DNA from: an uncultured Deferribacterales bacterium
GTDB lineage: Bacteria > Chrysiogenota > Deferribacteres > Deferribacterales > Calditerrivibrionaceae
Assembly (NCBI GenBank): GCA_964519265.1
Contig: CAZFHX010000009.1
Coordinates: forward strand, 11,450-75,449
Reading direction: 5' to 3'
DNA length: 64,000 nt
Positions 10,880 to 41,408 of this stretch are shown one piece after another; the first letter of the stretch is position 1, and each line of letters starts with the position of its first letter. Made by a program: the position numbers and the translations under genes. The notes beneath the pieces are model-generated. The model did no database searches. It saw nothing but the letters and a program-made list of their open reading frames with translations, and had not been told where the DNA came from.

Positions 10880-11132
10880 TTTCTAATTTAAATTCTTTCA
10901 GTGCCTTCTTAAAATCATTATCGGCATAAACCTTCACAACCTTTAACTCTTTAATGAGGTCCTTTCCACCATTGCTCAATAAAAATGTATCAGGAGACAA
11001 CTTCGAAGCGGTTTGAAATCTCCTATCTGCCGTGGTCACTTCGTAAACATAGATATATGCATACAAGTCAAAAACAGGTAACAAAATCAGTGCAATCGCA
11101 ATTAATCTACCTATTTGCACCCACCAATTCAT
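10803..11132 (-). CDS. small membrane-anchored hypothetical protein
   Basis: 109 aa with N-terminal TM helix WWVQIGRLIAIALILLPVF. It overlaps the cheA 3' end by 26 nt and the downstream ORF by 65-77 nt, so its coding status is uncertain. Confidence 0.45.
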   Translation of the reverse strand: MNWWVQIGRLIAIALILLPVFDLYAYIYVYEVTTADRRFQTASKLSPDTFLLSNGGKDLIKELKVVKVYADNDFKKALKEFKLESENVNVLLPKKAPDDRSANPYIWWR

Positions 11133-26291: not shown

Positions 26292-27004
26292 ATATTTCCT
26301 CCGCTGTTGTCATCTATAATATCTTTTAATTCTACAAACTCTGTACCCTCTCCAACCTGCTCGTCGTAGAGATCCTTCTCATACATCAGACAACACATGA
26401 GTCTTCCACAAATACCAGAAATTTTTGATGGATTTAGCAGGAGGTTCTGATCCTTTGCCATTTTAATTGATATGTTGTCAAAATGCCTCAGAAAAGTGGC
26501 ACAACACAGATCTCTACCACATATCCCAAATCCGCCAAGTATCTTAGTGGCGTCCCTTATCCCCACCTGCCTCATCTCTATACGGGTTTTGAATATTCTT
26601 GCCAAATCTTTCACCAGCTGTCTAAAATCTATCCTTCCATCCGCAGTAAAATAGAATGTTAGTTTCTTGCGATCCAAGGTATATTCTGCTCTTAGGAGCT
26701 TCATAGGTAATCCATGCTCTTTTATGAGCCTCTTACATTCTTTGAAAGCCTCTGGTTCATCTTTTCTATTCTCTGCTGCTAATCTTATATCCTCAGGGGT
26801 TGCTTTTCGAAGTATACTTTTCATCACCTGCTCATCGGGTACCTCGATCTCCCGATCAGGATATACGACAACAGCTATATCTTCCCCTTTCTCAGTTTCT
26901 ACTATGGCAAAATCACCCGTTTTTAGCTCTACACCATTTGTCAAAAAATCGTATATCTTTCCAGCTTTCTTGAAAGCAACACCGGTAGCTCTATATCTTT
27001 TCAC
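26288..27004 (-). CDS. ricT: PSP1-domain protein (RicT/YaaT family)
   Basis: 238 aa. PSP1 C-terminal domain with Cys cluster GICGRDLCCATFL...CGRLMCCLMYE. The tmk-holB-ricT-metG-tatD synteny matches Firmicutes. Confidence 0.85.
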   Translation of the reverse strand: MKRYRATGVAFKKAGKIYDFLTNGVELKTGDFAIVETEKGEDIAVVVYPDREIEVPDEQVMKSILRKATPEDIRLAAENRKDEPEAFKECKRLIKEHGLPMKLLRAEYTLDRKKLTFYFTADGRIDFRQLVKDLARIFKTRIEMRQVGIRDATKILGGFGICGRDLCCATFLRHFDNISIKMAKDQNLLLNPSKISGICGRLMCCLMYEKDLYDEQVGEGTEFVELKDIIDDNSGGNI

Positions 27005-27902
27005 TCAATACTCCATCGATTTTAGTTAAAATATTGGCTTTTAGTATACGCAGGTTTACATTATAGTCAAGCATTCTGTAAGTATCCAAGAGCATATCAA
27101 AAAGCACTAAATACTTATATTCCTTCTGCTTACGGTAGATCTCTATTATCCTGCCTAAAAGGAATATTATATAGTATCTTAAATCATCCTTTTCAGCCAT
27201 TTTAAAGATATTCAAGGCATGTTTTAAAATATCATTCCACTCGAAATCCTCTTCGATCCAACCCAATTTACCACCAGAGTGATCTTGAAAAAGGTATTTT
27301 ATATGTTTCATTGCCAGAAGAGCAGAACCACCCGATATATCCAAAATATCATCGACTACGCTTTCATCAAACCCTTGCTGAGTAAGGATCCTTCTTAAAT
27401 CCTCATCCCCAAGTCTTGAAAATCTCAGATGAATGCACCTTGATCTGATAGTAGGAATAATTTTATCCAATTGACTTGTAATTAGAAAAAAAACCGTATT
27501 CTCACCAGGTTCTTCCAATGTTTTCAAAAAAGCATTACACGCCTCTTTTCTCAAAACATGAAAATTATCGAGAATATAAAACTTATAACCACCCATAAAT
27601 GAAGAAAGATAACTATTTTCCGAGATTTCACGAATCTGATCTATCCCATAATCGTTATCATCTTCATTGGTAAAGATAGTCAAATCGGGGTGACAATCGC
27701 CCAATATCAATTTACAGGACTCGCATCTACAATCCTCATTAAAGAAAGACCCTTTTTTACACAACGCCACTCTGGCAATCTCTTTGGCAAATAGCTTTTT
27801 ACCGATACCCTCATTTCCGTAAAAGAGGTATCCATTGGCAAACCTATGATTCCTTATGATACTATCAAAATATTTTATATACTTATCAAACCCATACAGC
27901 AT
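26991..27902 (-). CDS. holB: DNA polymerase III delta' subunit
   Basis: 303 aa. AAA+-like GNEGIGKKLFA, zinc module CKKGSFFNEDCRCESC, sensor motif TIRSRC. Confidence 0.85.
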   Translation of the reverse strand: MLYGFDKYIKYFDSIIRNHRFANGYLFYGNEGIGKKLFAKEIARVALCKKGSFFNEDCRCESCKLILGDCHPDLTIFTNEDDNDYGIDQIREISENSYLSSFMGGYKFYILDNFHVLRKEACNAFLKTLEEPGENTVFFLITSQLDKIIPTIRSRCIHLRFSRLGDEDLRRILTQQGFDESVVDDILDISGGSALLAMKHIKYLFQDHSGGKLGWIEEDFEWNDILKHALNIFKMAEKDDLRYYIIFLLGRIIEIYRKQKEYKYLVLFDMLLDTYRMLDYNVNLRILKANILTKIDGVLSEKI

Positions 27903-28530
27903 CTAAAAACCCATTCACATAACTTTTGATCTCGTCAAATAATTCATCAATAGCACGATTCCCATCTACAATTACGACATTTTCAAAATTATCCCTATAC
28001 CATAAAAACCCTTCCCTGACCCTGTTGTAGAATTCGAGATTCAACGATTCAAACTTCCCCTCTGCCGACATCAGGTTCTCTTTTTTTAACCTCTCCTTTG
28101 CTCTACTCAGGGCAATTTCAGGTTCCACATCGATAATGATCGTTAGCGATGGGTATACAAAAACGGATATATCTTTAAGAAAATCGAGGATCTTTAGATC
28201 AAGTCCACGCCCAAAAATCTGATAAGCATAGGTTGAAGATATAAACCTATCGGAAATCACGGCATAATTCATTTCAAGATGAGGCAAAATCACCTTTTTC
28301 TGATGCTCCAATCTATCCGCAGAATATAGTAGCAGTTCAGTTTCTGGTTCTAAATGGTAATCCTTGGATATGAGTATCTTTCTAAGTATTGCTCCGAGTT
28401 CTGTTCCACCTGGTTCTTTGGTTAGGCGAAATGGGACATTCAATCCAGTCAAGTAATCTGCCAATTTATTTATCTGCGTCGTTTTACCACAACCATCTAT
28501 ACCATCTATCGCTATGAAGAAACCTCTCAT
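27886..28530 (-). CDS. tmk: thymidylate kinase
   Basis: 214 aa. P-loop GIDGCGKTT, the TKEPGGT motif, and a DRF motif in the LID region. Confidence 0.92.
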   Translation of the reverse strand: MRGFFIAIDGIDGCGKTTQINKLADYLTGLNVPFRLTKEPGGTELGAILRKILISKDYHLEPETELLLYSADRLEHQKKVILPHLEMNYAVISDRFISSTYAYQIFGRGLDLKILDFLKDISVFVYPSLTIIIDVEPEIALSRAKERLKKENLMSAEGKFESLNLEFYNRVREGFLWYRDNFENVVIVDGNRAIDELFDEIKSYVNGFLDAVWV

Positions 28531-28543
28531 CTTGAGCCTTTAA

Positions 28544-29473
28544 TCAGTTTGTAGCACAGTCTGCGGTGCTTCCTTGGATCTTTTCAATAGTATGTTCTAT
28601 TGCACTGGATATTACTGCTAAATTTTCCATGGCACCTTTGGGGCTACCCGGTAGATTGATGATCAAACTCTCTCTTCTAATCCCTACAACAGCTCTCGAA
28701 ATCAACGCCCTCGGTGTCTTTTTAAAGCTTTCCATACGCATCGCCTCTTCAAACCCTGGTAATCTCTTTTCTATAACCTTAAGAGTGACATCGGGAGCAA
28801 TATCCCTCGGAGATACCCCTGTTGAGCCATTTGTAATTATGAGATCAAATCTCTGTAGATCACAGAAATCTACCAACATATTCTCAAGTATGTTTTTCTC
28901 ATCAGGAATCATCTCTTTACGAATAAAACTTACCTTAAAATTATTTTCAAAATATTTTTTCAATTCTTCACCGGTGATATCCACCCTCTCACCTTTGCTA
29001 CCTTTGTCGCTAAGAGTGATGATCGCCACAGATACTCCATCTTTCTTTTTGACATCTATGGGGTCCCCCACTTTGATCTCACCACTACCCCTCACCACCG
29101 CAAAAATCCCTTCTTTAGGCATGATGCAATCACCAGCCTGATAGAAGATAGCACATCTATGATGACATACCTTACCTATCTGTGATACTACAAAGTCTAT
29201 CCCATTGATGCTCAATATATCACCAACTTTAAATTTACAAAGATCCAGCCCTTCAGTGGTAATATTCTCAGCAAAATCGCCACTTTTCACATTTAACCCT
29301 AACTTTACCATCTTTTCTATACTTTCTTTGGCAAGAAAACTAACCTGCCTGTGCATATACCCTGCATGAGCATCACCCTCTATACCAAAATTGTCCAGAA
29401 GGATGGCACTGTTCACATTGCTCTTTCTCATACCTTTTTTTTCGCTTGTCGAAATAGAAAATACTCTGCCCAA
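28544..29473 (-). CDS. MOSC domain fused to MoaB/MogA-type molybdopterin-binding domain
   Basis: MOSC part (GIEGDAHAG...RQVSFL...GDFAENITTEG) and MoaB/Mog part (AIITLSDKGSKGER.D.TG...TNGSTGVSPRD). I prefer the TTG 29473 start (GGAGGT SD 4 nt upstream). The track's start at 29533 is actually a -35 box. Confidence 0.8.
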   Translation of the reverse strand: MGRVFSISTSEKKGMRKSNVNSAILLDNFGIEGDAHAGYMHRQVSFLAKESIEKMVKLGLNVKSGDFAENITTEGLDLCKFKVGDILSINGIDFVVSQIGKVCHHRCAIFYQAGDCIMPKEGIFAVVRGSGEIKVGDPIDVKKKDGVSVAIITLSDKGSKGERVDITGEELKKYFENNFKVSFIRKEMIPDEKNILENMLVDFCDLQRFDLIITNGSTGVSPRDIAPDVTLKVIEKRLPGFEEAMRMESFKKTPRALISRAVVGIRRESLIINLPGSPKGAMENLAVISSAIEHTIEKIQGSTADCATN

Positions 29474-29504
29474 ATGTACCTCCAAAACGATTAGAAACTT
29501 AAGA

Positions 29505-29533
29505 ATTTTAGTAAAAATATACGACAATGTCAA
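29505..29533 (-). promoter_or_regulatory. sigma-70 promoter for MOSC-MoaB/tmk/holB...
   Basis: The minus strand reads TTGACA (29533-29528), a 17-nt spacer, then TAAAAT (29510-29505). Confidence 0.55.
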
Positions 29534-29580
29534 TCTATAAGAGATGTACCTTGCTAATTATAACAAAGAATCAAGATGAA

Positions 29581-29603
29581 AATAAAAAACCCCCTTTCGG
29601 GGG
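29581..29603 (-). terminator. rho-independent terminator of the sdhCDAB operon
   Basis: Stem CCCCC/GGGGG with a 4-nt loop (29590-29603). T-runs flank it on both strands, and it starts 7 nt after the sdhB stop. Confidence 0.8.
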
Positions 29604-29609
29604 CTTTTA

Positions 29610-30329
29610 TTAATACCCTCTCTCGAGGAGCATTCTTCTGATACCAACGATAGCTTTGGTTGGATTAAGCTGCTTTGGACATGCCTCTACGCAGTTGTAG
29701 ATAGTGTGGCATCTCCATACCCCATGCTTATCATTGAGTATTGGGAGTCTATCTTCTGCACCTTCATCCCTTGAATCGATGAGATATCTATAAGCTCTAA
29801 GGAAAGCGTTTGGTCCCAAATATTTTTCATCAGCCCAATAGGATGGACAGGATGAAGAGCAGCATCCGCAGAGGATACACTCATAAAGACCATCGAGAAG
29901 CTTTCTATCCTCTGGTGATTGATAGAATTCTTTGTCTGGTGCAGGGCTTTTTCTGATGAGGTATGGCTTAACTGTGATGAACTTCTGGAAGAAATCATCC
30001 ACATCTGTAACAAGATCTCTAATCACCCTCATACCAGGTAAAGGCTGGATTACTATATGATCTGTACCCAAATCTTCGATCTTTGTCATGCATGAAAGCA
30101 TGTTTACACCATTTACATTCAAACCATCAGAACCACACACACCTTCACGGCATGATCTCCTAAAACTCAATGTAGGATCAAGCTCCCACTTAACCTGATT
30201 GAGACCTTCAAGAAGAAGCATTCCCGATCTTCTGATCTCAACCTTGTATGTCTGATAGTACGGTTCTTTGTCCTTTTCTGGATCGTATCTAAATATCTCA
30301 AAAGTAACGAATTTATTTGTACTCATCAT
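29610..30329 (-). CDS. sdhB: succinate dehydrogenase/fumarate reductase iron-sulfur subunit
   Basis: 239 aa with three Cys clusters: CREGVCGSDG, CILCGCCSSSC and CHTIYNCVEACP. Confidence 0.92.
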   Translation of the reverse strand: MMSTNKFVTFEIFRYDPEKDKEPYYQTYKVEIRRSGMLLLEGLNQVKWELDPTLSFRRSCREGVCGSDGLNVNGVNMLSCMTKIEDLGTDHIVIQPLPGMRVIRDLVTDVDDFFQKFITVKPYLIRKSPAPDKEFYQSPEDRKLLDGLYECILCGCCSSSCPSYWADEKYLGPNAFLRAYRYLIDSRDEGAEDRLPILNDKHGVWRCHTIYNCVEACPKQLNPTKAIVGIRRMLLERGY

Positions 30330-30340
30330 ATTCCTCCCTA

Positions 30341-32110
30341 TTAATATACTCTTGGTTTAAGTGGGAATGGTTCAACAGTGAGAGGTTTCATACGAACAGG
30401 TCTATAGTCGATTTTGATATTACCATCACCATCAAGAGTAACTTCTGTGTGCTTATGGAAGTTTACATCATCTCTCTCTGGATAGTCCTCTCTTGCATGT
30501 CCACCTCTGGACTCTTTTCTCATAAGAGCCGCCTCTGTAAGAGCCTGAGAAACGAGAACCATATTGTTAAGCTCAAGAGCTTCAATCAGTTCTAAGTTGT
30601 AAACTGTAGATTTATCGTTAACTCTATAGTCTTCAAGCTGCTGCTTTAATTCAGCCAAAATACCTTTAGCAGTTGTCATTGTCTCTTCTGTTCTAAACAC
30701 ACCAACATACTTCTCCATAGTTTCTGTCAGTGTTTTGTACATAGGTCCAAAGGTATTCTTGCCATTCGAGTTGAGGAACTTCTGAAGTAGTTCGATACCT
30801 TCCTTTCCTGCATTATCAGCCAATGGTACAAAGTTGTTCTCTTTTGCATATTTAGCAGACTGCTCACCAGCCGTTCTACCAAACACAACAAGGTCGAGAA
30901 GTGAGTTTGTACCCAATCTGTTGGCACCATGAACAGATGCAGAAGCGATCTCACCAGCAGCGAAGAAACCTGGTACAGTCTCCTCTGGGTTAGGTCCAAC
31001 ACCTCTGATAACCTGAGTGAGGTAGTTAGTTGGGATACCACCATTTTGATAATGTGCTGTAGGCATAACAGGGATAGGCTCCTTTGTACAATCCACACCA
31101 GCAAATACGAGAGCCAATTCGTGGATACCTGGAAGCTTCTCATGGATAGCTTCAGCACCTATATGATCTATCTTTAAAAGAACATGGTCTTTGTTTGGTC
31201 CTACACCTCTACCAGCAAGAACCTCTTTTACCATAGATCTTGAAACGATATCCCTTGGTGCGAGGTCTTTAATAGTTGGGGCGTATCTCTCCATGAATCT
31301 CTCACCCTGAGCATTGAGAAGGATACCACCCTCACCTCTAACACCCTCAGTAATAAGGTTACCAGCTAAATAGATACCTGTTGGGTGGAACTGAATAAAT
31401 TCAGCATCAGACCAAGAAAAACCTTTTCTTAAAGCAAGAGCCAAACCATCACCAGTATTTATATGAGCATTTGAGTTAGTTTTAAAAATTCTGCAGCATC
31501 CACCAGTGGCAAATACAACTGCCTTGGCATGGAAGATATGGAATCCACCATTTTTGATGTCCCAGCAGAGAACACCATTTACTGCACCTTCGTTTGTGAG
31601 AAGCTCGAGAGCGTAAAACTCACTGAAGAACTGTGTTTTCTGAGCAACAGCCTTTTCAAAAAGCGTCTGAAGCATAACATGACCTGTTCTGTCTGCGGCA
31701 TAACATGCTCTTTTAACAGGTCTTTTACCAAACTCAGCAGTATGACCACCAAATGGTCTCTGAGCAATCTTACCCTCTTTTGTTCTACTAAAAGGAACAC
31801 CGATATGCTCAAGCTCGATAATGTACTGAGGAGCCAATTTTGTCATATACTCGCAGGCATCTTGGTCAGCCAAATAGTCGCTACCTTTTACAGTATCATA
31901 CATATGCCAGATCCAGTGATCCTCTTCCAAGTTACCCAGTGCAGCAGAAATACCACCCTGGGCAGAAATTGTGTGGCTTCTTGTGGGGTACACTTCTGAG
32001 ATCACGGCAGTGCTAACATACTGAGATGCCACCTGAGCTGCATTAAGCCCTGCACCACCAGCACCTAAAACAACCACATCATATTTATGATATTCAACTT
32101 TTACAGACAT
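30341..32110 (-). CDS. sdhA: succinate dehydrogenase/fumarate reductase flavoprotein subunit
   Basis: 589 aa. FAD motif VVLGAGGAGL, covalent-FAD His region SHTISAQGG, plus HPTG and RGEGG. Confidence 0.95.
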   Translation of the reverse strand: MSVKVEYHKYDVVVLGAGGAGLNAAQVASQYVSTAVISEVYPTRSHTISAQGGISAALGNLEEDHWIWHMYDTVKGSDYLADQDACEYMTKLAPQYIIELEHIGVPFSRTKEGKIAQRPFGGHTAEFGKRPVKRACYAADRTGHVMLQTLFEKAVAQKTQFFSEFYALELLTNEGAVNGVLCWDIKNGGFHIFHAKAVVFATGGCCRIFKTNSNAHINTGDGLALALRKGFSWSDAEFIQFHPTGIYLAGNLITEGVRGEGGILLNAQGERFMERYAPTIKDLAPRDIVSRSMVKEVLAGRGVGPNKDHVLLKIDHIGAEAIHEKLPGIHELALVFAGVDCTKEPIPVMPTAHYQNGGIPTNYLTQVIRGVGPNPEETVPGFFAAGEIASASVHGANRLGTNSLLDLVVFGRTAGEQSAKYAKENNFVPLADNAGKEGIELLQKFLNSNGKNTFGPMYKTLTETMEKYVGVFRTEETMTTAKGILAELKQQLEDYRVNDKSTVYNLELIEALELNNMVLVSQALTEAALMRKESRGGHAREDYPERDDVNFHKHTEVTLDGDGNIKIDYRPVRMKPLTVEPFPLKPRVY

Positions 32111-32131
32111 ATTCTCTACCTCTCCTTATTT

Positions 32132-32452
32132 TTATAAACCTGATACTACCTTAAGAGCCAAAACTGCTGCGGTCACCCCAACAATCCAATAGATTGCAAG
32201 GATGATAGCCCTCCAGGTAGTGGATGATACATAATCATCGGTGATCATTTTAAAACCGTTCATTGTATGGAAGATACCAAAGGCAAAAAGTGGTCCTAAA
32301 ACTATACTCTTAAGTCCCCAAGCACCAGATTTTATCATTGAAAAGAAATGCACTGCTATTACCACTATGAGAATAACACCGGAAATCCTTTGAAGCAACC
32401 ACTCAAGCAATCCTGAGTCGCTGTGACCGTTATATTTATACCCTTTCATCAT
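32132..32452 (-). CDS. sdhD: succinate dehydrogenase/fumarate reductase small membrane anchor subunit
   Basis: 106 aa with three TM helices and conserved His residues. Position in the operon supports the call. Confidence 0.75.
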   Translation of the reverse strand: MMKGYKYNGHSDSGLLEWLLQRISGVILIVVIAVHFFSMIKSGAWGLKSIVLGPLFAFGIFHTMNGFKMITDDYVSSTTWRAIILAIYWIVGVTAAVLALKVVSGL

Positions 32453-32465
32453 ATTCTAACCTCCC

Positions 32466-32819
32466 TTAAGAAAATAGCGGTATCGCACCGATGATCGTAA
32501 CCACTATTGTAAGAAGGATTACAACCATAAACTGCTTTGAAAACACTTCCCTCTCGGCACCATTAGAAAAGTCGATCAAAACTATCCTAAAACCATTAAA
32601 CGCATGATAAGCAAACGCTACCAACACAATGATTCTCGCGATAGCATTGCCTGTCAATGCACCAAACCAATCTGCATAACCAGCTTTTCCAAAAATGTGA
32701 AGAATTAGATATAAACCCAAAATTACCCCAGTAATACGATGAAGAAGCCATGCCGTCATTCCGGTATGCTTCTTGTAGGAAACCTTTTTGGGATAGGTCA
32801 CCAAATCTTTTCTTGGCAT
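32466..32819 (-). CDS. sdhC: succinate dehydrogenase/fumarate reductase cytochrome b subunit
   Basis: Three TM helices, with WLLHRITG typical of SdhC. I prefer the ATG 32819 start (AAGGGGTG SD). The track start at 32882 lies in the promoter region. Confidence 0.8.
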   Translation of the reverse strand: MPRKDLVTYPKKVSYKKHTGMTAWLLHRITGVILGLYLILHIFGKAGYADWFGALTGNAIARIIVLVAFAYHAFNGFRIVLIDFSNGAEREVFSKQFMVVILLTIVVTIIGAIPLFS

Positions 32820-32895
32820 TTTGCACCCCTTATATTTTATTTTACAAACAGCGTTAAATATTTTCAGGCTAACTTTTACCAAAAAAAATCGATGT

Positions 32896-32927
32896 TGTCA
32901 ATAATTCTGTATACAATATACAAATTA
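32896..32927 (-). promoter_or_regulatory. sdhCDAB promoter region: 20-nt palindromic box plus TTGACA -35
   Basis: Minus strand: TAATTTGTATATTGTATACA (32927-32908), 6 nt, TTGACA (32901-32896), 17 nt, TAAAAG. The 20-mer is identical to the one upstream of gltA (39561-39580). Confidence 0.55.
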
Positions 32928-33039
32928 ATCATCATCTATGCTGGATTTGATAGAATTAATCTTTCTACGATATTGAAAAAATAAATTCCATCTTGAATTA
33001 TTAAAAATAATAACAATGTTTTACAGAAAGGAGGATTAA

Positions 33040-33432
33040 TTAATCAATGAGTTGTAAAACCCTCTTCAATTTGAGATTAGCCTGAGCCATCAAAGCTGAT
33101 GAGCTATTCATCTTAATCTGAGCAGAAACAAGCTCCGCAATCTGCTCAATATTTTGTTGGGTTTGCTCCAGCATCTTTTTTCTCTGCTCACTCTCCTGTA
33201 AGCTTACGATGGCATACTCCAAAGATCTCAAACGAGCATTCAAACTATTTACCATGTAGTTCACATCACTTACAGAATTAGATACAATAGAAGATTTATA
33301 ACTACTCGACACTTGAACATTGGAGGATGCTTGAGGAGTCTTATCATCCTGCCTATCTATCTCTTGGGATTTTTTGACTTTAGAGTTTAGTATATATTCA
33401 GATACAGGGTTTATATTATCTATCTTTGTCAT
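33040..33432 (-). CDS. 130-aa protein whose C-terminus resembles the flagellin C-terminal D0/D1 helix (no flagellin N-terminus)
   Basis: The C-terminus ...NIEQIAELVSAQIKMNSSSALMAQANLKLKRVLQLID follows the flagellin tail pattern (..ILAQ....AMAQAN....VL.LL.). The N-terminal half is S/N/Q-rich and looks disordered. A sigma-28-like promoter precedes the gene. Confidence 0.6.
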   Translation of the reverse strand: MTKIDNINPVSEYILNSKVKKSQEIDRQDDKTPQASSNVQVSSSYKSSIVSNSVSDVNYMVNSLNARLRSLEYAIVSLQESEQRKKMLEQTQQNIEQIAELVSAQIKMNSSSALMAQANLKLKRVLQLID

Positions 33433-33485
33433 GACGCACCTTCACGGCACATCCATGTAGTATTTCAGCTTCCCTGCGTTATTAT

Positions 33486-33513
33486 AAATCGACCAAAAAA
33501 AACAAAAACTTTA
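33486..33513 (-). promoter_or_regulatory. sigma-28 (FliA)-type promoter
   Basis: Minus strand: TAAAGTTT (33513-33506), 12 nt, GTCGATTT (33493-33486). The consensus is TAAAGTTT-N11-GCCGATAA. The CGAT core is conserved and the spacer is 1 nt longer. Confidence 0.55.
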
Positions 33514-33520
33514 GGATTTT

Positions 33521-33763
33521 TTAAAAGATTACTTTCGATACTATCTCTTCTAAGCTATCCCTGCCATTTATCTTTATTATCTTCTTTCCATCAATTACAG
33601 CAACAGGAGGATTTAAAATACCGTACTTCTCTGGGATTACATGCTCATTTGTGTCAAATAGTGATACCGAAACATTCTTCCCAAATTTATATTTGATGCT
33701 CTCCATCAACTCAGGTGTTTCTTTGTCTATATTCCCATTGTAATAAACCTCTAACTTCACCAT
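33521..33763 (-). CDS. thioredoxin_3-like small protein lacking the CxxC active site
   Basis: 80 aa from ATG 33763 (GGAGGT SD). Its pattern is that of small glutaredoxin-like proteins (..YGILNPPVAVIDGKKIIKINGR.SLEEI), but there is no redox Cys pair. Confidence 0.55.
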   Translation of the reverse strand: MVKLEVYYNGNIDKETPELMESIKYKFGKNVSVSLFDTNEHVIPEKYGILNPPVAVIDGKKIIKINGRDSLEEIVSKVIF

Positions 33764-33802
33764 ACACACCTCCTACTCTAATTATATCACAGAATAAATT
33801 TT

Positions 33803-36175
33803 TTACTTCAATTTAGTGGAAAAATATGTAAATCTTTTGGATCTATCGGGAAATTTGATCAAAGCCTTGTCTAAATAGCGTTTTGCATCTGATTTTTTGT
33901 TGAGCTTTAAATAACCTTCTATAGCTGCGGCATACAGCTCAGGATCGTTAAATTTCTCTATCCCCAACATCTCAAAGATCTTTGTCCCCTCTTCGTAGTT
34001 TCCCTTTCTTATGAGGGCAAATGCATAGTAAACCATTATCTCTTCATCGTTAGCAAAGGCGTTGTAAGCTTTGATAAATGAGTCTACAGCATCATTTATC
34101 CGCCCCATATTAAGATAAACCTTACCACTTGTGAGAAGTTGCTCCGCTAAAAGGATATTTTTTATATCTATCTTTTTATTCGGTTTACCAGATTCATTTT
34201 TTTGAATAAGGGAGTCGTATGCATATTTTATAATTTCAAATATCTCCCTTGCCAACTGCTTCCCCTGGGGGTCAGTCACAAGATCGGGGTGATATTTTTT
34301 AGAAAACTTGAGATAGGTCTGCTTAATCTTTTCCAAACTATGATCTCCACCCTTCACATCGAAGATCTCCTCTGGTGTCATCTGCTTTATCTTGTTTAGA
34401 TACTCCTGCAACTCTTTCAGTGGTATCTCAGGTTCTTCATATTCTTTTATATAACCCAACCTGTAGAGGACATTTAAGGTAGCCATTTCGTACTCATTTA
34501 GATTTTCCAGCTCATCAGAAGACAACCTTCCATCTTTGAAGCGATCTAAAAGATTTACCAACAACCCTATATTATCAAACTCTGAAACTAAGACATTCCT
34601 ATCCTTCAAAAGCTCGTAATCTGCCTGGATATTCAACTCGTTCTTTAACTTCACTCTACCATTTACAATGGACAGTAGCAGCATAAAAAGCATATTAAAA
34701 TCGTACTCAATATCTATCGGTATCGTCTTGTCATACACAAAAATCGATGAAAATACCTCACTACCTAAGATTTCGTAAAAGAGCATATTCTCGTAAACTT
34801 CCAAAACACCCCTTATATCATCGAAAGAGTAGTTGTTCTTTTCCATAAAATTCGTAAAAAAAGTTATAAAATCGTCAGATGCATCCACTTGAAATGTTAC
34901 AAACACACTGGTCTTTTCGTGCAAAAACTTTGATATGGAAAAATCATCAGATATGGAATATAAAAATACAAGTTTCCCTTGCTTAAAAAAAAGTTTTGCC
35001 GTCATGATGTTGGTCACAATCTCAAGCTCACCAGTCAATTCCCGCTTGTAAATATCGAGTAGGACGGAAATAATATCGTTGGACATCACCTCTGTCTTGT
35101 TTTTTTCCTGCTGCTTTATCAATAAAAGCCCTAATTTATGCAACTTATCGATTATAAGATAAAGCTCTGCCTTTGTAATGTTGACTACCTTAGACAGTTT
35201 AGCCACCGTTGGATAATCATCCATTCTTGATAAAACGAAACCCTCCACTGGAGATATATAGATCTTTTCATCGAGCAATTTGAGCCTATTCACAGAAAAA
35301 ATGGTATTCTCGCCGCCAAATTTTTTCGTAAAATATTTAGTTATGTAAAGCACCATATTGTCGTAAAACTTCTTAATCTGATCATTCTGGTAGCCGGAGT
35401 TTAGTATCGATATTATACTTTTGAGGGATTCGTATATCTTATTTTTATTGAACAGCTCCAAAGCCACTATAAACTTAACTATAGGGTCCTCAGGCTCCAC
35501 AAACTCTTTCTCAGAAACGATCTTCATCGTTCCATTGATTATTCCTGTATAGATCTGTTCATAAGTAGAAAAGTAATCCCCACCTATCTCCCTAACGATC
35601 TCCCCCACAGATTTTGTACCATCAGCATACTTTTTTAATGGGTTCTGTTCATCCTTAACCACAATAACGGAATTTTGGGAGAACACCTTAAAAAACCTCG
35701 ACATATCATCCTTTCTTCTGAGCCCTTCCAGAATAAGAAAATCAACAGGCATAGATACCATCGTATCCCTGACATCCTTTTCATCGAATACAAAAAATCC
35801 GCTCTCCCAATTTAAAATATGATAGACCACTTCCTCTACCTGTATTTCAAGAATCCTCTTTACACTTGATTCATCAAGGAAATTATACTCAATCAAAACT
35901 TGACCAATCGGTATTTTTAACTGCTTTTGTAGAGAAAGCCCCTTAACCAGACTACTTTTATTCAGCATTTTGTACCTAAGCAAAAGTTGACCTACAAGAA
36001 GAGAAGGTATATTGGAAGTGACATAGACAATTCTACCGTTTTTGAAGATGATATTTACTTCATCATTATCTTTTTGAAGGTGCAACTCTCCATTCTTATT
36101 GGAAAAGGCGATCCACTGAAAAACTTCGGTAATCGGCATCGCTTTGAGATCGCCAACAAGCCCTTTACTGACCAT
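33803..36175 (-). CDS. PATAN (DUF4388) x2 - DnaJ J-domain - TPR multidomain protein
   Basis: 790 aa. N-terminal LVGDLKAMPITEVFQWIAFSNKNGELHLQKD..VNIIFKNGRIVYV is DUF4388. A second copy lies near aa 380 (LTGELEIVTNIMTAKLFFKQGKLVFLY). The J-domain has HPD (LKFSKKYHPDLV), and TPR repeats close the C-terminus. Confidence 0.8.
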   Translation of the reverse strand: MVSKGLVGDLKAMPITEVFQWIAFSNKNGELHLQKDNDEVNIIFKNGRIVYVTSNIPSLLVGQLLLRYKMLNKSSLVKGLSLQKQLKIPIGQVLIEYNFLDESSVKRILEIQVEEVVYHILNWESGFFVFDEKDVRDTMVSMPVDFLILEGLRRKDDMSRFFKVFSQNSVIVVKDEQNPLKKYADGTKSVGEIVREIGGDYFSTYEQIYTGIINGTMKIVSEKEFVEPEDPIVKFIVALELFNKNKIYESLKSIISILNSGYQNDQIKKFYDNMVLYITKYFTKKFGGENTIFSVNRLKLLDEKIYISPVEGFVLSRMDDYPTVAKLSKVVNITKAELYLIIDKLHKLGLLLIKQQEKNKTEVMSNDIISVLLDIYKRELTGELEIVTNIMTAKLFFKQGKLVFLYSISDDFSISKFLHEKTSVFVTFQVDASDDFITFFTNFMEKNNYSFDDIRGVLEVYENMLFYEILGSEVFSSIFVYDKTIPIDIEYDFNMLFMLLLSIVNGRVKLKNELNIQADYELLKDRNVLVSEFDNIGLLVNLLDRFKDGRLSSDELENLNEYEMATLNVLYRLGYIKEYEEPEIPLKELQEYLNKIKQMTPEEIFDVKGGDHSLEKIKQTYLKFSKKYHPDLVTDPQGKQLAREIFEIIKYAYDSLIQKNESGKPNKKIDIKNILLAEQLLTSGKVYLNMGRINDAVDSFIKAYNAFANDEEIMVYYAFALIRKGNYEEGTKIFEMLGIEKFNDPELYAAAIEGYLKLNKKSDAKRYLDKALIKFPDRSKRFTYFSTKLK

Positions 36176-36932
36176 TTATAACCCTTAAAAGTTTATCATG
36201 TATATAGCCATTCGATGCAACAATAAAATCGGACAAAAGATCAAAATCTTCACCATTTCTTCCAGAAACCTTACCTCCAGCCTCCTCCAAAATGATAACC
36301 CCAGCGGCAACATCCCACGGTTTTAAGTTAGCTTCATAATACCCTTGAAATACCCCCTTTGCTACATAACATAGATCCAAAGAGGCAGAACCAGCCCTTC
36401 TTATACCCCTGCTGTTTTTCAGGACAGACTTTAGTATATCAAGGAGATAATCCTTTCCACCATCAACGATGGAATACGGAAATCCTGTGGCTATAAGACT
36501 TTTTATGATCTCATCTTCTTTACTTACCGTGATCTTTTTGTCGTTGCAAAAAGCTCCTTTACCACTTTCTGCATAGAATAGTTCATTCAAAATAGGGTTA
36601 TAAACAACACCTATTCGGCAACTTTTTGAAATAAACCCCACCGATATGGCACAAAAAGGGAAACCATGAACAAAATTTGTAGTCCCATCTATCGGATCGA
36701 TAAAAAAACTCCCCACTTCATTGTAATCTATGTTTTCATTAAACTCTTCAGAGATAAAAATCGATTCAGGAAAAGATCTTTTCAATTCATCCAAAAGATA
36801 GTTTTCGATCTTTCTATCATATTCCGTTACAAGATCGATGGTTCCTTTAAAATCAATTTCCAATCTGGAATAGTAACCTTCACTTAAAATTTTACCAGCA
36901 GTCAACACGATGTCTATTATTTTATTCAACAT
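36165..36932 (-). CDS. inositol monophosphatase family protein (SuhB-like)
   Basis: 255 aa with SEE, IDPIDGTTNF and WDVAAG motifs. Confidence 0.88.
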   Translation of the reverse strand: MLNKIIDIVLTAGKILSEGYYSRLEIDFKGTIDLVTEYDRKIENYLLDELKRSFPESIFISEEFNENIDYNEVGSFFIDPIDGTTNFVHGFPFCAISVGFISKSCRIGVVYNPILNELFYAESGKGAFCNDKKITVSKEDEIIKSLIATGFPYSIVDGGKDYLLDILKSVLKNSRGIRRAGSASLDLCYVAKGVFQGYYEANLKPWDVAAGVIILEEAGGKVSGRNGEDFDLLSDFIVASNGYIHDKLLRVINGQ

Positions 36933-36981
36933 AGTCCATTATAATACCAAAAAAATCGTTTATGCAATAGAATTTTGCAGA

Positions 36982-38019
36982 TTATTTGTCGAAAAATACA
37001 GACAATTCACCCAACCTTGACAAACATCTCAGTAATTTTTTCTGAAAGCATGACTCTAACATCTCTTTGGAGAATAGATCATGAGGCTGGCATGATGTCT
37101 TGACAAAGATACTTGTATTGTAATAATAGCAGCTATCTATGAAATGGGCAAATCTTAGAGCATCGTTTAGATGAGGAAACGGCTCAAGCCCATCAATAAA
37201 GAGAGATTCCACCTTTTCAGGAATAACAAAGTATTTGAATGGATGATTATCCACAAGCACCTTGATTAACTCATCCACTTTTACGAGCATCTTAGATTCG
37301 GAGGTATCATGCTTGAAAAATTCATAGAAGTGATCATCGGTCACCTTTCTTTTTACCTGATGTTTCTTCTTGCGGTAATCCTCACCTTCAACTATCACAG
37401 TTTTGAATGTGTTTGCAATAACCCCCAACTCCTTTGTGAACTCATCTGCCTGAAACCTAAATTTACCCAAATCGGAGGGTAGAGTGTTTGATGTGGTAAT
37501 GATAAGTGTATTTTTGTTTATGTTGGCAAAAAACTTTGCGATCATCCTCGTAGTTGCAGGATCATCGAGTTCAAACTCATCTATGAGCAAAAGATCAATT
37601 TTTGAAAACTCCTCTATACATTTCTCCACTCCCCAGTAAACGAAAAAATAGTTCAGATCACCGAAACTCATAAATGCTTTCTTAACATTAGCTGTGTTGT
37701 AGCATGCAGATATCAGATGTGTCTTACCCACACCATACCCACCATCGATATATAGATTCTTGACGGGCAACCCCTCTTCCTCTTTTTTTGAAAAAAGACC
37801 AAAAAAACCCCTTTTATTAGACTTTGGTTTGTTTTTAAACTCATTTAATCTATTGATCTTGTCGATCAAGGTCTCTTTTATGTAATACTGGGAAGGGTAG
37901 TTGTCATCGGGGATATAGTTTTCAAATGTACAATGGGAAAACTTAGGATGTGGCCTTAAATTTTCAAAACACTTTTCTATTGACACTTCAAACGATATAT
38001 CATCTATACTATAAATCAT
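36982..38019 (-). CDS. zapE: AFG1/ZapE-family ATPase
   Basis: 345 aa. Walker A GGYGVGKTHL, Walker B LLLIDEFELDD, and AFG1-like length and layout. Confidence 0.8.
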   Translation of the reverse strand: MIYSIDDISFEVSIEKCFENLRPHPKFSHCTFENYIPDDNYPSQYYIKETLIDKINRLNEFKNKPKSNKRGFFGLFSKKEEEGLPVKNLYIDGGYGVGKTHLISACYNTANVKKAFMSFGDLNYFFVYWGVEKCIEEFSKIDLLLIDEFELDDPATTRMIAKFFANINKNTLIITTSNTLPSDLGKFRFQADEFTKELGVIANTFKTVIVEGEDYRKKKHQVKRKVTDDHFYEFFKHDTSESKMLVKVDELIKVLVDNHPFKYFVIPEKVESLFIDGLEPFPHLNDALRFAHFIDSCYYYNTSIFVKTSCQPHDLFSKEMLESCFQKKLLRCLSRLGELSVFFDK

Positions 38020-38102
38020 ACCTTACCTTTACCGTTATTTTGAAGGAGAATTATTACAAAATTTGTATGATAAAATCAAGCAGTATTTGAAAATCTTGAA
38101 AC

Positions 38103-38125
38103 AAAAAATGGGGGCATACGCCCCC
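38103..38125 (-). terminator. rho-independent terminator of gltA
   Basis: Minus strand: GGGGGC-GTAT-GCCCCC followed by ATTTTTTGT. Confidence 0.8.
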
Positions 38126-38150
38126 TTTATTTTTACTGCTTTATTATAAT

Positions 38151-39476
38151 TTATAATTGTGGAGGATTTGCAGCCCACTGCTCAAGCATGTCTGTTGTAA
38201 CAGACTTAGGTCTTTCGATTGGATATCCAAGACCTCTATCCCAAGTAATGTTAGCCATACAACCCAACGCTCTACCAACACCGAAGAGTACAGTGTAGAA
38301 ATCCCACTCTCTTACACCATAGTACCACTGAATTACACCAGACTGAGCATCAACATTTGGCCATGGGTTCTTAGCCTTACCATGCTTCATCAATACATCT
38401 GGAGCAACTTCATAGATCATAGAAACAACCTTGAAGAGAGGATCATCTCTCAATCCAGGAGTTTCAAGACAGAAATTCCTCTGAGCAGTGTATCTTGGGT
38501 CTGTCTTACGAAGAACTGCATGACCATAACCTGGGATAACCTGTCCAGAGTTAAGTGTATCCCAAAGAGCCTGCTCAATAAGCTCTTTTGTAGGCTCAGC
38601 ACCTTTTAAATACTTCTCCTCAAACTTGATTATCCAATCAAGCACTTCCTGGTTTGCAAGACCATGAAGTGGGCCTGCAAGACCATTAAGACCAGCAGAG
38701 TAAGCATAGTATGGATCTGAAAGAGCAGAGTGAACAAGGTGAGTAGTATGAGCAGAAACATTACCAGACTCATGGTCAGAGTGAAGGATAAAGTACATTC
38801 TTGCAACATCAGCATACTCTTTGCACTGACCGATCATATGAGCAAAGTTTGCTCCCATATCGAGAGATGGATCTGGAGCTACCTGGAAGTCTCCTCTGTA
38901 CTTGAGGTTGTATATGAAAGCAGCGATTATTGGGATACGAGCAACAAGATCATAAGCATCTTCATACACATATTCCCAAGCAACTTTCTTGTTGAAGTTA
39001 CCTGAGCTATAGAACTTAGCAAACTTAGAATCTTTCTGAAGAGCCAAGATACCAGTAGAAAGCATTACCATTGGATGGCTATCTCTTGGAAGAGCTCTGA
39101 TCACATCCCATACATAAGAAGGAACTACCTGACGAACCTTCCACTCTTTGAGAACCTCATCTACCTGCTCCTGAGTTGGGATGTCACCAGTGAGCAAGAA
39201 ATACCAGAAAGCTTCAACTGTTGGATATTTTGAACCTGGAGCTTTTGGAAGAGCCTCAAAAGTCTCAGGAATAGTTTTACCACGGAATCTAATACCTTCA
39301 TGTGGATCAAGATAAGAAATATCTGTAACAAGACATTTAATATCTCTCATTCCACCCAATGCCTGGCTGATAGTTACCTTGTCAATAACAACATTAGCAA
39401 ATTCCTTGTTGAGTCTTTGGGTCCTTACACTGTGCTCGGCTATCTTTTTAGCCAATGTTTGCTTTAATTGAGACAT
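38151..39476 (-). CDS. gltA: citrate synthase
   Basis: Signature PGYGHAVLRKTDPR plus catalytic His/Asp context. I prefer the ATG 39476 start (GGAGGT SD 5 nt upstream, protein MSQLKQ...). The track start at 39515 adds 13 aa. Confidence 0.92.
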   Translation of the reverse strand: MSQLKQTLAKKIAEHSVRTQRLNKEFANVVIDKVTISQALGGMRDIKCLVTDISYLDPHEGIRFRGKTIPETFEALPKAPGSKYPTVEAFWYFLLTGDIPTQEQVDEVLKEWKVRQVVPSYVWDVIRALPRDSHPMVMLSTGILALQKDSKFAKFYSSGNFNKKVAWEYVYEDAYDLVARIPIIAAFIYNLKYRGDFQVAPDPSLDMGANFAHMIGQCKEYADVARMYFILHSDHESGNVSAHTTHLVHSALSDPYYAYSAGLNGLAGPLHGLANQEVLDWIIKFEEKYLKGAEPTKELIEQALWDTLNSGQVIPGYGHAVLRKTDPRYTAQRNFCLETPGLRDDPLFKVVSMIYEVAPDVLMKHGKAKNPWPNVDAQSGVIQWYYGVREWDFYTVLFGVGRALGCMANITWDRGLGYPIERPKSVTTDMLEQWAANPPQL

Positions 39477-39545
39477 ATGTGACCTCCTGTTTTTAATTGG
39501 TAAATTATAAACCACTGTTTATTTTCTATCATCAAAAAGAGAATT

Positions 39546-39580
39546 TGTCAACAGATTTATTGTATACAATATACAAATTA
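39546..39580 (-). promoter_or_regulatory. gltA promoter region: the same 20-nt palindromic box plus TTGACA -35
   Basis: Minus strand: TAATTTGTATATTGTATACA (39580-39561), 9 nt, TTGACA (39551-39546), 17 nt, TAGAAA. Confidence 0.55.
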
Positions 39581-39769
39581 CATTCACAGACATTATTGTT
39601 TTTATTGATAAATTAGATTATTAAAACTTATAATAAAAATTAAAAAAATATTTTAATATGAAACATTACCAAAAAACTGTTTTCAAAAACAAACTGTATT
39701 ATCTTTTAGTTATAACATAACATAGAAATTTTAGTTGAATAACTTCGAAAAATTTATTAGTTTCGAAGA

Positions 39770-40609
39770 ATGTTAGGTGTTTCCCTTATCATATTCAGCG
39801 CTTTGATGCATGCTCTATGGAATTTTTTTCTCAAAAAATCCACAGACAAACATATATTTAACTATCAGATGCACACCTTTAATTTAGCATTGATGACAAT
39901 AGCTTACCCTATCTTTTTCAGAAAATATATACATTTTGATATCAGACCCATTGCTTACGGATTTTTAGCAGGCATATTCTTCTCTGCATACCACCTCTTT
40001 CTGAGTCAAAGTTATAAAACAGAAGATGTATCAAAAGTCTATCCCATCACCACATCATCACCAATATTTGTGACGGTTTTAGCAATAATATTTCTGGGAG
40101 AAAAAATTTCCCTCATCGGTTTTATAGGTATCTTAACTGTAATATTTGGAATACTGATACTAAACATGAATTCCATAGGGGGCATAAGGTTTACAAAAGG
40201 GGTATTATTCGCCATTCTATCATCGATCGCCTATTCTTTTGGTGCCATTATAGAAAAATCTGGAGTTGGAAAGGGGAATATCTTTTTATATATATATTCT
40301 GTAACCTTCTTCATGACCCTTTTTCTCTTTATATATTCCAAAAAGCACTCTCAAGGTCATGTAAAGTTTGTCAAAGAAAACCTACACCTCTTGATACCAG
40401 CAAGTGCCGTTCTTTTCCTATCAGTGGTCACATACAGATTCGGCCTTGAGAAAATAAATGTATCCTACGCTACATCGATAAGGCAGATCAATGCTCTTTT
40501 TGGCGTTTTTATTGGTGTTTTACTCCTCAAAGAACCTTTTGAGAAAAAGAGAGTCATCGGAGCCATCACTATCATACTGGGAATTATTTTCATCAAAAGT
40601 GGCATGTAA
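39770..40609 (+). CDS. EamA/DMT-family transporter
   Basis: 279 aa with 10 predicted TM helices arranged as two EamA repeats. Confidence 0.85.
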   Translation: MLGVSLIIFSALMHALWNFFLKKSTDKHIFNYQMHTFNLALMTIAYPIFFRKYIHFDIRPIAYGFLAGIFFSAYHLFLSQSYKTEDVSKVYPITTSSPIFVTVLAIIFLGEKISLIGFIGILTVIFGILILNMNSIGGIRFTKGVLFAILSSIAYSFGAIIEKSGVGKGNIFLYIYSVTFFMTLFLFIYSKKHSQGHVKFVKENLHLLIPASAVLFLSVVTYRFGLEKINVSYATSIRQINALFGVFIGVLLLKEPFEKKRVIGAITIILGIIFIKSGM

Positions 40610-40682
40610 GATTGGCATAAAAAATGCTATATCATCTATGAAAAGTAGTGGAACAACCACGCTTTTAAGAAGGACCGTCACC

Positions 40683-40710
40683 TGCCGGCTGGATGCCGGC
40701 ACCTTTTTTT
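40683..40710 (+). terminator. rho-independent terminator after the EamA gene
   Basis: GCCGGC-TGGAT-GCCGGC stem-loop (40684-40700) followed by ACC-T7. Confidence 0.7.
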
Positions 40711-40712
40711 AT

Positions 40713-40741
40713 TTGATTTTTGAAGACTTTTATTGTATAGT
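40713..40741 (+). promoter_or_regulatory. candidate sigma-70 promoter for the crotonase-polA-...-csd4 gene string
   Basis: TTGATT (40713-40718), 17-nt spacer, TATAGT (40736-40741). Confidence 0.45.
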
Positions 40742-40765
40742 TTCCATATATTTGCGAGGTGTGTA

Positions 40766-41407
40766 TTGATAGATCTAAATATTATCGGAGAAATAGCCAA
40801 GATCACCCTGACCCCAGATGAAAAGTTTAACATTTTAAGTCCGACAAATATAAAAAAACTCACATCAACCTTCGAGCAACTCAAAGATACCCAAGTGAAG
40901 TGTATCATAGTTTATGGTGAAGGTGGATCGTTCGCCGTAGGAGCAAATATAAAACAGATGTATGAGTATGATGGATTCATGGCAAAGGGGTTTTCGATTT
41001 TGGGCAATAAACTTTTTACACTAATGTCGGATCTACCTCAAATTATAATTGCCGAGATCGATGGATTTTGTATGGGTGGTGGTGTAGATTTCGCCGCAGC
41101 ATGCGATTTTAGATTTGCTACCATAAAAAGTAAGTTTGCACATCCAGGTGCCCAATTGGGGATAATCACAGGTTTTGGTGGCACCCAAAGGCTTCCGAGA
41201 CTGATGAAACAAAACGCCATATCTGAGATATTTCTAACCGGCGAACTTTTCGATGCAAAATTCATGTTTGAATCATACTTCCTAAACGGTATATTTGAAA
41301 ATTACCAAGAATTATCCAAAAATACCGAGAAGATAGCCCAGAAGATCACCTCAAAAAATAAAATTTTCCTCAGAGAATTAAAAAATACGCCTAATAGGAA
41401 ATGCTGA
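40766..41407 (+). CDS. enoyl-CoA hydratase/isomerase (crotonase) family protein
   Basis: Crotonase fold with GEGGSFAVGANI and the oxyanion-hole region GFCMGGGVDFAAACD. I prefer the TTG 40766 start (GAGGTG SD). The track's TTG 40733 lies inside the putative promoter spacer. Confidence 0.75.
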   Translation: MIDLNIIGEIAKITLTPDEKFNILSPTNIKKLTSTFEQLKDTQVKCIIVYGEGGSFAVGANIKQMYEYDGFMAKGFSILGNKLFTLMSDLPQIIIAEIDGFCMGGGVDFAAACDFRFATIKSKFAHPGAQLGIITGFGGTQRLPRLMKQNAISEIFLTGELFDAKFMFESYFLNGIFENYQELSKNTEKIAQKITSKNKIFLRELKNTPNRKC

Positions 41408-41408
41408 A

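Follow-up and report, generated by a model that had tools for sequence, protein, structure and literature searches.

Bacteria that build flagella have to keep flagellin synthesis in step with its export and to set the length of the filament, and the devices known to serve these ends are FlgM, FliS, the FliW-CsrA switch and, most recently, FlaG. FliS binds the C-terminal D0 segment of flagellin, which is sufficient for the interaction, and FliW has its main site within the N-terminal ~72 residues, which are sufficient in Bacillus subtilis and essential in Campylobacter jejuni (PMC6070490; PMC5466977). Hydrogen-deuterium exchange (HDX) has shown flagellin (Hag) to be protected by FlhA-C and FliW at residues ~236-260 and by FliS and FlhA-C at residues ~275-304, and hag V299D and L300E mutants form almost no filaments (PMC6070490). 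FlaG, a small protein secreted by the flagellar type III system, counteracts the docking of FliS-flagellin at FlhA and limits filament length in polar flagellates (PMC11536152). CsrA, for which SELEX yielded the consensus RUACARGGAUGU, activates Escherichia coli ymdA by opening a hairpin that sequesters the Shine-Dalgarno (SD) sequence (PMC7652899). Here we describe a 130-amino-acid protein, which we term the mini-flagellin, encoded in a 64,000-nucleotide (nt) stretch (hereafter the window; contig CAZFHX010000009.1, assembly GCA_964519265.1) from an uncultured Deferribacterales bacterium; its C-terminal half resembles the tail of flagellin, and its gene carries a sigma-28-type promoter and a near-invariant CsrA-type leader.

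The gene and the parts of its product map as follows:

33040..33432, minus strand: coding sequence of the 130-amino-acid mini-flagellin, from the list of open reading frames (ORFs), with an ATG start and its stop codon at 33040-33042.
33304..33432, minus strand: codons 1-43, the predicted disordered N-terminal half, with the conserved start M-x-K/R-I-D/E (AlphaFold2 and family alignment).
33046..33303, minus strand: codons 44-129, one predicted helix, the putative homologue of flagellin D1-C and D0-C (AlphaFold2 and alignments to flagellin C-termini).
33043..33150, minus strand: codons 95-130, the D0-C-like tail, whose flagellin counterpart is the FliS-bound segment.

An initial annotation, made from the sequence alone, had proposed a protein of this length with a disordered N-terminal half and a flagellin-like C-terminus, lacking both the flagellin N-terminal helix and a variable domain, and the ORF list, profile searches and structure prediction bear this out. 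In an AlphaFold2 model based on a five-sequence family alignment, residues 1-41 have a predicted local distance difference test score (pLDDT) below 50, and residues 44-129 form a single continuous helix with block-mean pLDDT of 82-97 from residue 51. A Foldseek search of the model against PDB returned no matches, a lone long helix being uninformative for fold searches.

Likeness to flagellin is seen at several levels of search. When the single sequence was compared with PDB by phmmer, flagellins ranked top (E 0.13-0.9), the best match placing residues 50-129 on residues 206-281 of a 282-amino-acid flagellin (E 0.13); the Aquifex FliC fragment crystallised with FliS (1ORY_B) was also matched (E 0.31), its residues 20-54 aligning with mini-flagellin residues 94-128. 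With the family profile, flagellins accounted for 23 of 26 PDB matches (best E 0.0012), and all alignments to flagellins reach the last residues of both proteins. Alignment by hhalign of family columns 57-136 with residues 717-799 of an 800-amino-acid Calditerrivibrio flagellin, a protein found by synteny and not by similarity, gave E 2.6e-4. The C-termini of full-length flagellins were reached by tblastn with residues ~50-129 at 29-36% identity; flagellins of other phyla had been chosen by a shared SSxALxAQAN pattern and were therefore left out of the homology statistics. The tail, ending ...AELVSAQIKMNSSSALMAQANLKLKRVLQLID, matches flagellin C-termini end to end. Among the profiles named in the initial annotation as informative, FlgM and FlaG, like Flagellin_N, had zero matches at E<=10 in a Pfam scan of all five members, and Flagellin_C was matched below threshold; an NCBIfam scan gave no significant family and no FlgM model at E<=10. 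We conclude from these alignments that the helix and flagellin D1-C/D0-C are remotely homologous; by Pfam criteria the protein is not a flagellin. A role as a filament subunit is unlikely because half of the D0/D1 coiled coil is absent.

Conservation within the family is concentrated in two blocks, SNSVSDVNYxVNSLNARLRSLE and LVSAQxKMxSSxALMAQANxKLKxVLQL, and the V-L-Q-L of the tail is conserved. For comparison we used a B. subtilis Hag sequence whose numbering agrees with R57, Q297, V299, L300 and R304 as named in PMC6070490. In a hand alignment, DVNYMVNSL, (E)NLQESEQRKK and ALMAQAN...VLQLI presumably correspond to KLGAVQNRL, ENLTAAESRIR and AMLAQAN...VLQLL, and V125-L126-Q127-L128 to V299-L300-Q301-L302; the two conserved blocks would fall on Hag ~236-260 and ~275-304. 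The segment that is uniform in flagellins (ESRIRDxDMAxE) is variable across the mini-flagellin family, a pattern that would fit the retention of partner-binding surfaces where filament packing is no longer required.

Because the mini-flagellin keeps the D0-C tail and has no N-terminal FliW site, FliS and FlhA are plausible partners and FliW is much less so. The earlier suggestion that such a protein titrates FliS or FliW is thus plausible on its FliS side, with FlhA added, and disfavoured on its FliW side. The last ~40 residues form a flagellin-type D0-C tail, the feature by which a FliS client was to be recognised, and we consider binding to FliS about an even prospect.

The promoter features, and the sigma factor gene to which they point, are these:

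33486..33513, minus strand: sigma-28 (FliA)-type promoter, TAAAGTTT at 33513-33506, a T-rich 12-nt spacer and GTCGATTT at 33493-33486.
Near 33480, minus strand: predicted transcription start site (TSS) of the mini-flagellin gene, from the position of the promoter.
17248-17976: fliA, encoding a 242-amino-acid sigma factor with regions 2, 3 and 4, in fliA position.

A strict TAAAGTTT-type promoter pattern occurs once in the window, against 0.02 expected by chance. As a candidate member of the FliA regulon, the gene was checked for a TAAAGTTT-N11-GCCGATAA pattern and for the presence of fliA, and both are found, the pattern with a 12-nt spacer in the window; the fliA gene means that the organism has the sigma factor that such a promoter requires. 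In all five lineages of the family the arrangement TAAAGTTT-N11/12-(G/T)NCGA(T/A) is kept: TAAAGTTTT is invariant in the five aligned upstream regions, the -10 element reads GTCGATTT, GACGATAT, GTCGATAC, TCCGATAT or TCCGAATA with its core CGA(T/A) kept, and the spacer varies in sequence, four lineages having 11 nt and the window 12 nt. Boxes that are kept around a free spacer are the pattern expected of a functional sigma-28 promoter. The promoter proposed in the initial annotation is in this way supported by the conservation of its boxes in diverged lineages and by the low chance expectation.

Low-depth contigs covering the gene were present in 11 public sequencing runs guessed to be RNA, and were considered as support for the promoter or for high expression. 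They were rejected as such, as the controls were similar (13 on the gene versus 8 on sdhA and 6 on the PATAN gene, for equal-size controls in the guessed-RNA runs) and contigs cross the predicted TSS. Near-identical fragments of this Calditerrivibrio-like genome (window 24001-44000) occur at very low depth in many guessed-RNA public runs labelled with unrelated single organisms (X11, X14, X17, X25-X34 and X42-X52), and the control regions do likewise, which suggests a widespread low-level contaminant or co-habitant and not gene-specific expression.

Between the promoter and the start codon lies a leader of a predicted ~50 nt, with the following elements:

33468..33477, minus strand: GGA site 1, the upstream site, GCAGGGAAGC, invariant in five lineages save for one A/G change in the loop.
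33449..33458, minus strand: site 2, ACAUGGAUGU, the 5' arm of the SD/AUG hairpin, invariant in five lineages.
33442-33437, minus strand: SD sequence AAGGTG of the mini-flagellin gene.
33430..33457, minus strand: SD/AUG-sequestering hairpin, CAUGGAUGUGCCGUGAAGGUGCGUCAUG, in which site 2 is predicted to pair with the SD sequence (33442-33437) and with the start codon (33432-33430).

The leader, which goes beyond anything in the initial annotation and is arguably the more striking feature of the gene, is far better conserved across the five lineages than the coding sequence. Of the 29 bases from ACAUGG through the AUG, 27 do not differ among the five, GCAGGGA(A/G)GC is kept throughout, and this invariance holds although synonymous sites are saturated in these lineages. 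Site 2 agrees at 9 of 10 positions with the last ten (ACARGGAUGU) of the 12-nt CsrA SELEX consensus, and 0.5 occurrences of this 10-mer would be expected in 128 kb (both strands of the window). The strong hairpin has the layout CAUG-G-AUGUGCC-GUGAA-GGUGCGU-CAUG, and only two of its positions vary, one in the loop and one where a G-U pair becomes A-U; site 1 forms a mini-hairpin with a GC/GC stem of 2 bp and AGGGAA in the loop. Single-sequence folding and the alignment consensus predict the same structure, and the 71-nt stretch 33415-33485, which includes the small site-1 hairpin, has a minimum free energy of -14.4 kcal/mol (z = -1.9). The leader had no match in metagenome contigs when these were scanned for its exact pattern.

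The leader therefore has what defines a CsrA-type leader, two GGA sites placed where they could govern the access of ribosomes, and would connect the gene through its RNA with the CsrA-FliW circuit. By analogy, its layout matches ymdA-type activation and not the hag layout, in which a site lies on the SD sequence. We regard control of the mini-flagellin by CsrA as evenly balanced, and activation rather than repression as doubtful. Neither csrA nor fliW lies in the window or in the Calditerrivibrio loci examined, where tblastn was run for CsrA only and gave its sole match in an unrelated spirochaete locus; Calditerrivibrio nitroreducens DSM 19672 is scored CsrA=1 and FliW=1 (PMC4682653 Table S3).

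In frame with the gene, the leader has a further AUG (33430-33455, minus strand), with GAU GUG CCG UGA after it. This accounts for a 139-amino-acid form (P0003 / L034, MDVPWRCVM...), which reads through the UGA and is a gene-calling artefact and not a longer isoform; the P0003 DNA is identical to that of locus L008, which gives a 131-amino-acid form.

The family comprises five sequence clusters, all from Calditerrivibrio (Deferribacterota), and on the sequences searched is restricted to this genus. Searching 1.84 billion representative proteins with phmmer gave four clusters besides that of the window (120-139 amino acids, 74 to 40% identity), the most distant member having 35% identity in the family alignment, and a profile search of 5.8 billion clusters added no family members. 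A protein-pattern scan of genome contigs yielded one further member, at locus L008 of a C. nitroreducens metagenome-assembled genome (MAG); apart from it, such scans of genome and metagenome contigs gave only full-length flagellins of other phyla. Named sources are a C. nitroreducens MAG and Calditerrivibrio sp. MAGs, from oil-field, hot-spring and similar metagenomes.

At each locus an 80-amino-acid gene, the mini-flagellin gene and sdhCDAB follow one another in constant order. At the locus of the most divergent member (L020), an 800-amino-acid flagellin gene and a 58-amino-acid gene take the place of a gene encoding a PATAN-DnaJ protein, with the flagellin gene ~640 bp upstream of the mini-flagellin gene, so that the locus is linked to flagellin by position too. 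This flagellin carries its own sigma-28-type promoter, TAAAGTTG-N11-TCCGATAC, and a leader of the hag/flaA-type layout, with a CGC-AAGGAA-GCG hairpin (CGCAAGGAAGCG), which may be compared with site 1 of the mini-flagellin leader, and the SD sequence AAGGAGGA. The region (L020 3050-5780, from a Calditerrivibrio sp. MAG) encodes a flagellin with a very large variable region, followed by the 58-amino-acid ORF and a strong terminator. Recent copying of the mini-flagellin from this neighbour was considered and rejected, as BLASTP of the L020 member against the flagellin was not significant.

Nei-Gojobori counts show that the proportion of synonymous differences (pS) is 0.64-0.85, saturated in all pairs. 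The proportion of nonsynonymous differences (pN) in the closest pair is 0.07 in the helical half versus 0.29 in the N-terminal half; the N-terminal half, with pN of 0.29-0.58, is under weaker constraint than the helical half. Low pN in the helix despite saturated pS indicates that the gene is maintained by selection. The initial annotation had allowed for the remnant of a degraded flagellin gene, which is refuted by these data: all Calditerrivibrio loci examined carry an intact gene, and helix pN is 0.07 against pS of about 0.75. The conservation of homologues that it had proposed to check is thereby confirmed, in five clusters with intact genes and fixed synteny.

The reading we prefer, to which we give a little under an even chance, is that of a functional late (class III-like) flagellar gene, transcribed by FliA, with its translation set by CsrA and its product a flagellin-tail mimic directed at FliS and FlhA. 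Such a gene would have arisen from a flagellin gene, keeping the C-terminal D1-C/D0-C helix and adding a new disordered N-terminus of ~43 residues. FliA would transcribe it together with flagellin, and CsrA would gate its translation: an excess of cytoplasmic flagellin would hold FliW, freeing CsrA and thereby turning the mini-flagellin on and flagellin off. The D0-C tail would be offered to FliS and, via FliS or directly, to the FlhA export gate, and competition with flagellin for delivery would tune or limit filament growth. The protein may itself be exported by way of its N-terminal half, a possible flagellar type III export signal. Should CsrA activate the leader, the mini-flagellin would reinforce the shut-down of filament growth.

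A more ambitious form of this proposal, which we think unlikely, makes the protein a flagellin-derived decoy and an extra node of the FliW-CsrA-flagellin switch, in which free CsrA opens the hairpin and the mimic occupies FliS and the FlhA gate. If true, it would provide the first instance of opposite CsrA control over two flagellar mRNAs, and the first of a regulator that mimics the chaperone-binding tail of its own client. Client mimicry would then be a device both new and simple, connected to the sigma-28 and CsrA circuits, and the leader a compact natural instance of activation by CsrA beyond the gammaproteobacteria. As the family is small and belongs to one thermophilic genus, its importance would be one of mechanism before breadth. 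Direct biochemistry is within reach for a protein and a 60-nt leader of this size, and C. nitroreducens can be cultivated.

Several observations weigh against the interpretation as a FliA-transcribed, CsrA-set mimic of the flagellin tail. Statistical support for the homology is modest, with a best E of about 1e-3, and Pfam Flagellin_C was matched in only two of five members, at E 0.11 and below the gathering score. The tail reads NLKLKR in place of flagellin NQxPQN, without the proline and with extra positive charge; it departs from flagellin where flagellins are most uniform, and FliS binding is accordingly not to be assumed. At the promoter, the spacer in the window is one base over consensus, and two contigs from the guessed-RNA runs span the predicted TSS. 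In the leader, the site-1 GGA hairpin has a stem of only 2 bp, the GGA of site 2 lies in a stem and not in a loop, and the five-lineage alignment of the hairpin, a predicted structure, has no two-sided covariation.

An alternative is an anti-sigma-28 factor of non-canonical type, in function an FlgM: it would keep FliA bound until hook completion and then leave by export, with the tail recruiting FliS or FlhA. FlgM reportedly binds FliS in Salmonella and Yersinia, and the N-terminus M-x-K-I-D...P-V presumably resembles the M-x-I-D/N starts of FlgM proteins. The initial annotation had raised an exported regulator of this kind, and its small size, disordered N-terminal half and sigma-28 promoter all stand; sequence support for FlgM does not, since none of the five members matches Pfam FlgM or any NCBIfam model even at E<=10. 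The helix, moreover, aligns to flagellin and not to the four-helix sigma-28-binding region of FlgM, and a family confined to one genus would be odd for an essential checkpoint factor; we consider this alternative improbable.

We hold in similarly low regard the possibility of a secreted, non-structural flagellin derivative comparable to FlaC, exported with the aid of FliS to an extracellular role and without part in regulating assembly. It would account for a protein that keeps the D0-C tail behind a disordered N-terminus, and C. jejuni FlaC does bind FliS and not FliW, and is secreted but not assembled (PMC5466977). FlaC, however, retains both halves of D0/D1, and a lone amphipathic helix of 85 residues is unlikely to be a stable extracellular protein. 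No extracellular function is suggested by the sequence, and the strict control implied by the leader suggests a dose-sensitive intracellular role.

It is also quite improbable that the protein serves to titrate FliW, through the secondary site in D1-C, or the N-terminal D0/D1 helices of flagellin, shifting the FliW-CsrA partner switch. The family block SNSVSDVNYxVNSLNARLRSLE, its most conserved part, is presumably the equivalent of Hag 240-260 in the hand alignment, but the position matching Hag N255, a FliW determinant, is S in three of five members and N in two in our own alignment. The CsrA-type leader would suit such a titrator, as would the second FliW contact at Hag D1-C 240-260 seen by HDX protection (PMC6070490).

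That the protein is an unrelated coiled-coil orphan with a chance likeness to flagellin, or a functionless decaying fragment, is very improbable: weak E-values against flagellins, the failure of the single-helix model to find a Foldseek match and confinement to one genus would fit such an origin, but the protein has matches that are nearly all to flagellins and always reach the last residues of both, contains the specific motif ALMAQAN...VLQL, has a conserved flagellar promoter and an adjoining flagellin gene in L020, and is encoded by an intact gene under strong purifying selection in all lineages.

The mini-flagellin gene sits among housekeeping genes, with sdhCDAB downstream. On its upstream side lies the gene whose position is constant in the family:

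33521..33763, minus strand: the 80-amino-acid upstream neighbour, identified by synteny, with its stop codon 7 nt before the -35 element of the mini-flagellin promoter.

Beyond this ORF lie a DUF4388(PATAN)-DnaJ-TPR gene, an inositol monophosphatase gene, an AFG1-like ATPase gene and a citrate synthase gene. The initial annotation, which placed the mini-flagellin gene alone between the sdh operon and the PATAN-DnaJ gene, was correct on the sdh side only, as the conserved 80-amino-acid ORF intervenes on the other. Homologues of the 80-amino-acid protein were found only in Calditerrivibrio (70-99% identical), and its conservation is much higher than that of the mini-flagellin; a homologue is called 'Thioredoxin-like fold domain-containing' in one source, and the copy in the window has no cysteines. 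No terminator was found between its stop codon and the mini-flagellin -35 box, and an Rfam scan of 32800-33800 returned nothing relevant. The PATAN-DnaJ protein (33803-36175, minus strand; 790 amino acids) has two DUF4388 (PATAN) stretches, a DnaJ domain and C-terminal TPRs; its gene adjoins the locus in most Calditerrivibrio genomes, L020 having the flagellin gene instead. In the spacer between the mini-flagellin gene and sdhC (32883-33039), conservation between the window and L001 exceeds that of synonymous sites, and a palindrome, TGTATA-TTG-TATACA (32908-32922), lies beside a TTGACA -35-like box; the spacer is probably the regulatory region of the sdh operon.

As had been noted initially, the gene is far from the flagellar cluster, the flhA-flhF-flhG-fliA-che genes of the same window lying ~11 kb (flhA) to ~15 kb (fliA) away. 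Besides fliA, the window also carries flhA, flhF, flhG, cheB, fliM, fliN, cheZ, cheA and cheR. A looser sigma-28 pattern, TAAAG-N15/16-GYCGATW, occurs three times in the window against 0.07 expected, always on the minus strand: before the mini-flagellin gene, before a pair of ORFs adjoining the che genes, and within cheZ on the way to cheA. The second of these, TAAAGGTT-N11-TGCCGATA at 10919-10945 (minus strand), is the best sigma-28-type site of the window; downstream of it, between cheA and a PAS-SpoIIE phosphatase gene, ORFs 10286-10879 and 9291-10289 (both minus strand) encode proteins of 197 and 332 amino acids without a Pfam match, which could be late flagellar or chemotaxis proteins. 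The third, TAAAGCAT-N11-TGTCGATA at 13299-13325 (minus strand), lies within the 3' part of the cheZ-like ORF, ~90 nt ahead of a cheA-cheW-REC fusion gene (11107-13206), and may be an internal promoter. Downstream of cheR (2608-4753, minus strand) are genes for a PilZ-domain protein (3965-4753), a DUF6115 protein (3459-3968) and a 284-amino-acid protein without a Pfam match (2608-3462); this trio could form a motility module responsive to cyclic di-GMP.

Among known systems, the mini-flagellin is closest in sequence to flagellin itself (FliC/Hag/FlaB; PF00669 and PF00700). Residues ~48-129 appear homologous to D1-C/D0-C, including AQAN and VLQL, and the gene shares a sigma-28 promoter and a GGA-motif leader with hag/flaA and with the L020 Calditerrivibrio flagellin. 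It differs in having neither the D0-N/D1-N helices nor a variable domain, and so no coiled coil for polymerisation; in its new, disordered N-terminus; in the degeneration of ESRIRDxDMAxE (to ESEQRKKMLEQ) and the replacement of QxPQ by basic residues; and in a leader layout that, by analogy, suggests the opposite response to CsrA.

FlaG (PF03646) would be the closest functional precedent, in that it too is a small protein and performs the task proposed for the mini-flagellin; the host of the mini-flagellin carries flhF and flhG, which are polar-flagellation genes, and flaG is a late, FliA-dependent gene. The two have no sequence similarity, and FlaG is not known to be all-helical, whereas the mini-flagellin is modelled as a single helix. 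The proposed routes also differ: FlaG uses a separate site on FlhA, while the mini-flagellin would mimic the FliS-binding tail of the client. FlgM (PF04316) is likewise small, largely disordered, sigma-28-dependent and a likely export substrate, but no FlgM profile matches the mini-flagellin, the structured part of which is flagellin-like and unlike the sigma-28-binding region of FlgM. C. jejuni FlaC is another flagellin paralogue that acts outside the filament and binds FliS and not FliW (PMC5466977); it has both N- and C-terminal D0/D1, where the mini-flagellin has the C-terminal half only.

With CsrA-controlled leaders (hag/flaA, ymdA) the mini-flagellin mRNA shares two GGA sites about 20 nt apart, one of them near the SELEX consensus, and with ymdA the placement of one site upstream and one inside the SD-sequestering hairpin (PMC7652899). 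In hag a GGA lies on the SD sequence, whereas none does in the mini-flagellin leader, and the conservation of the latter far exceeds what CsrA recognition needs. As far as sequence comparison can indicate, the mini-flagellin is plausibly a functional, genus-restricted flagellin paralogue that has been reduced to the chaperone-binding tail.

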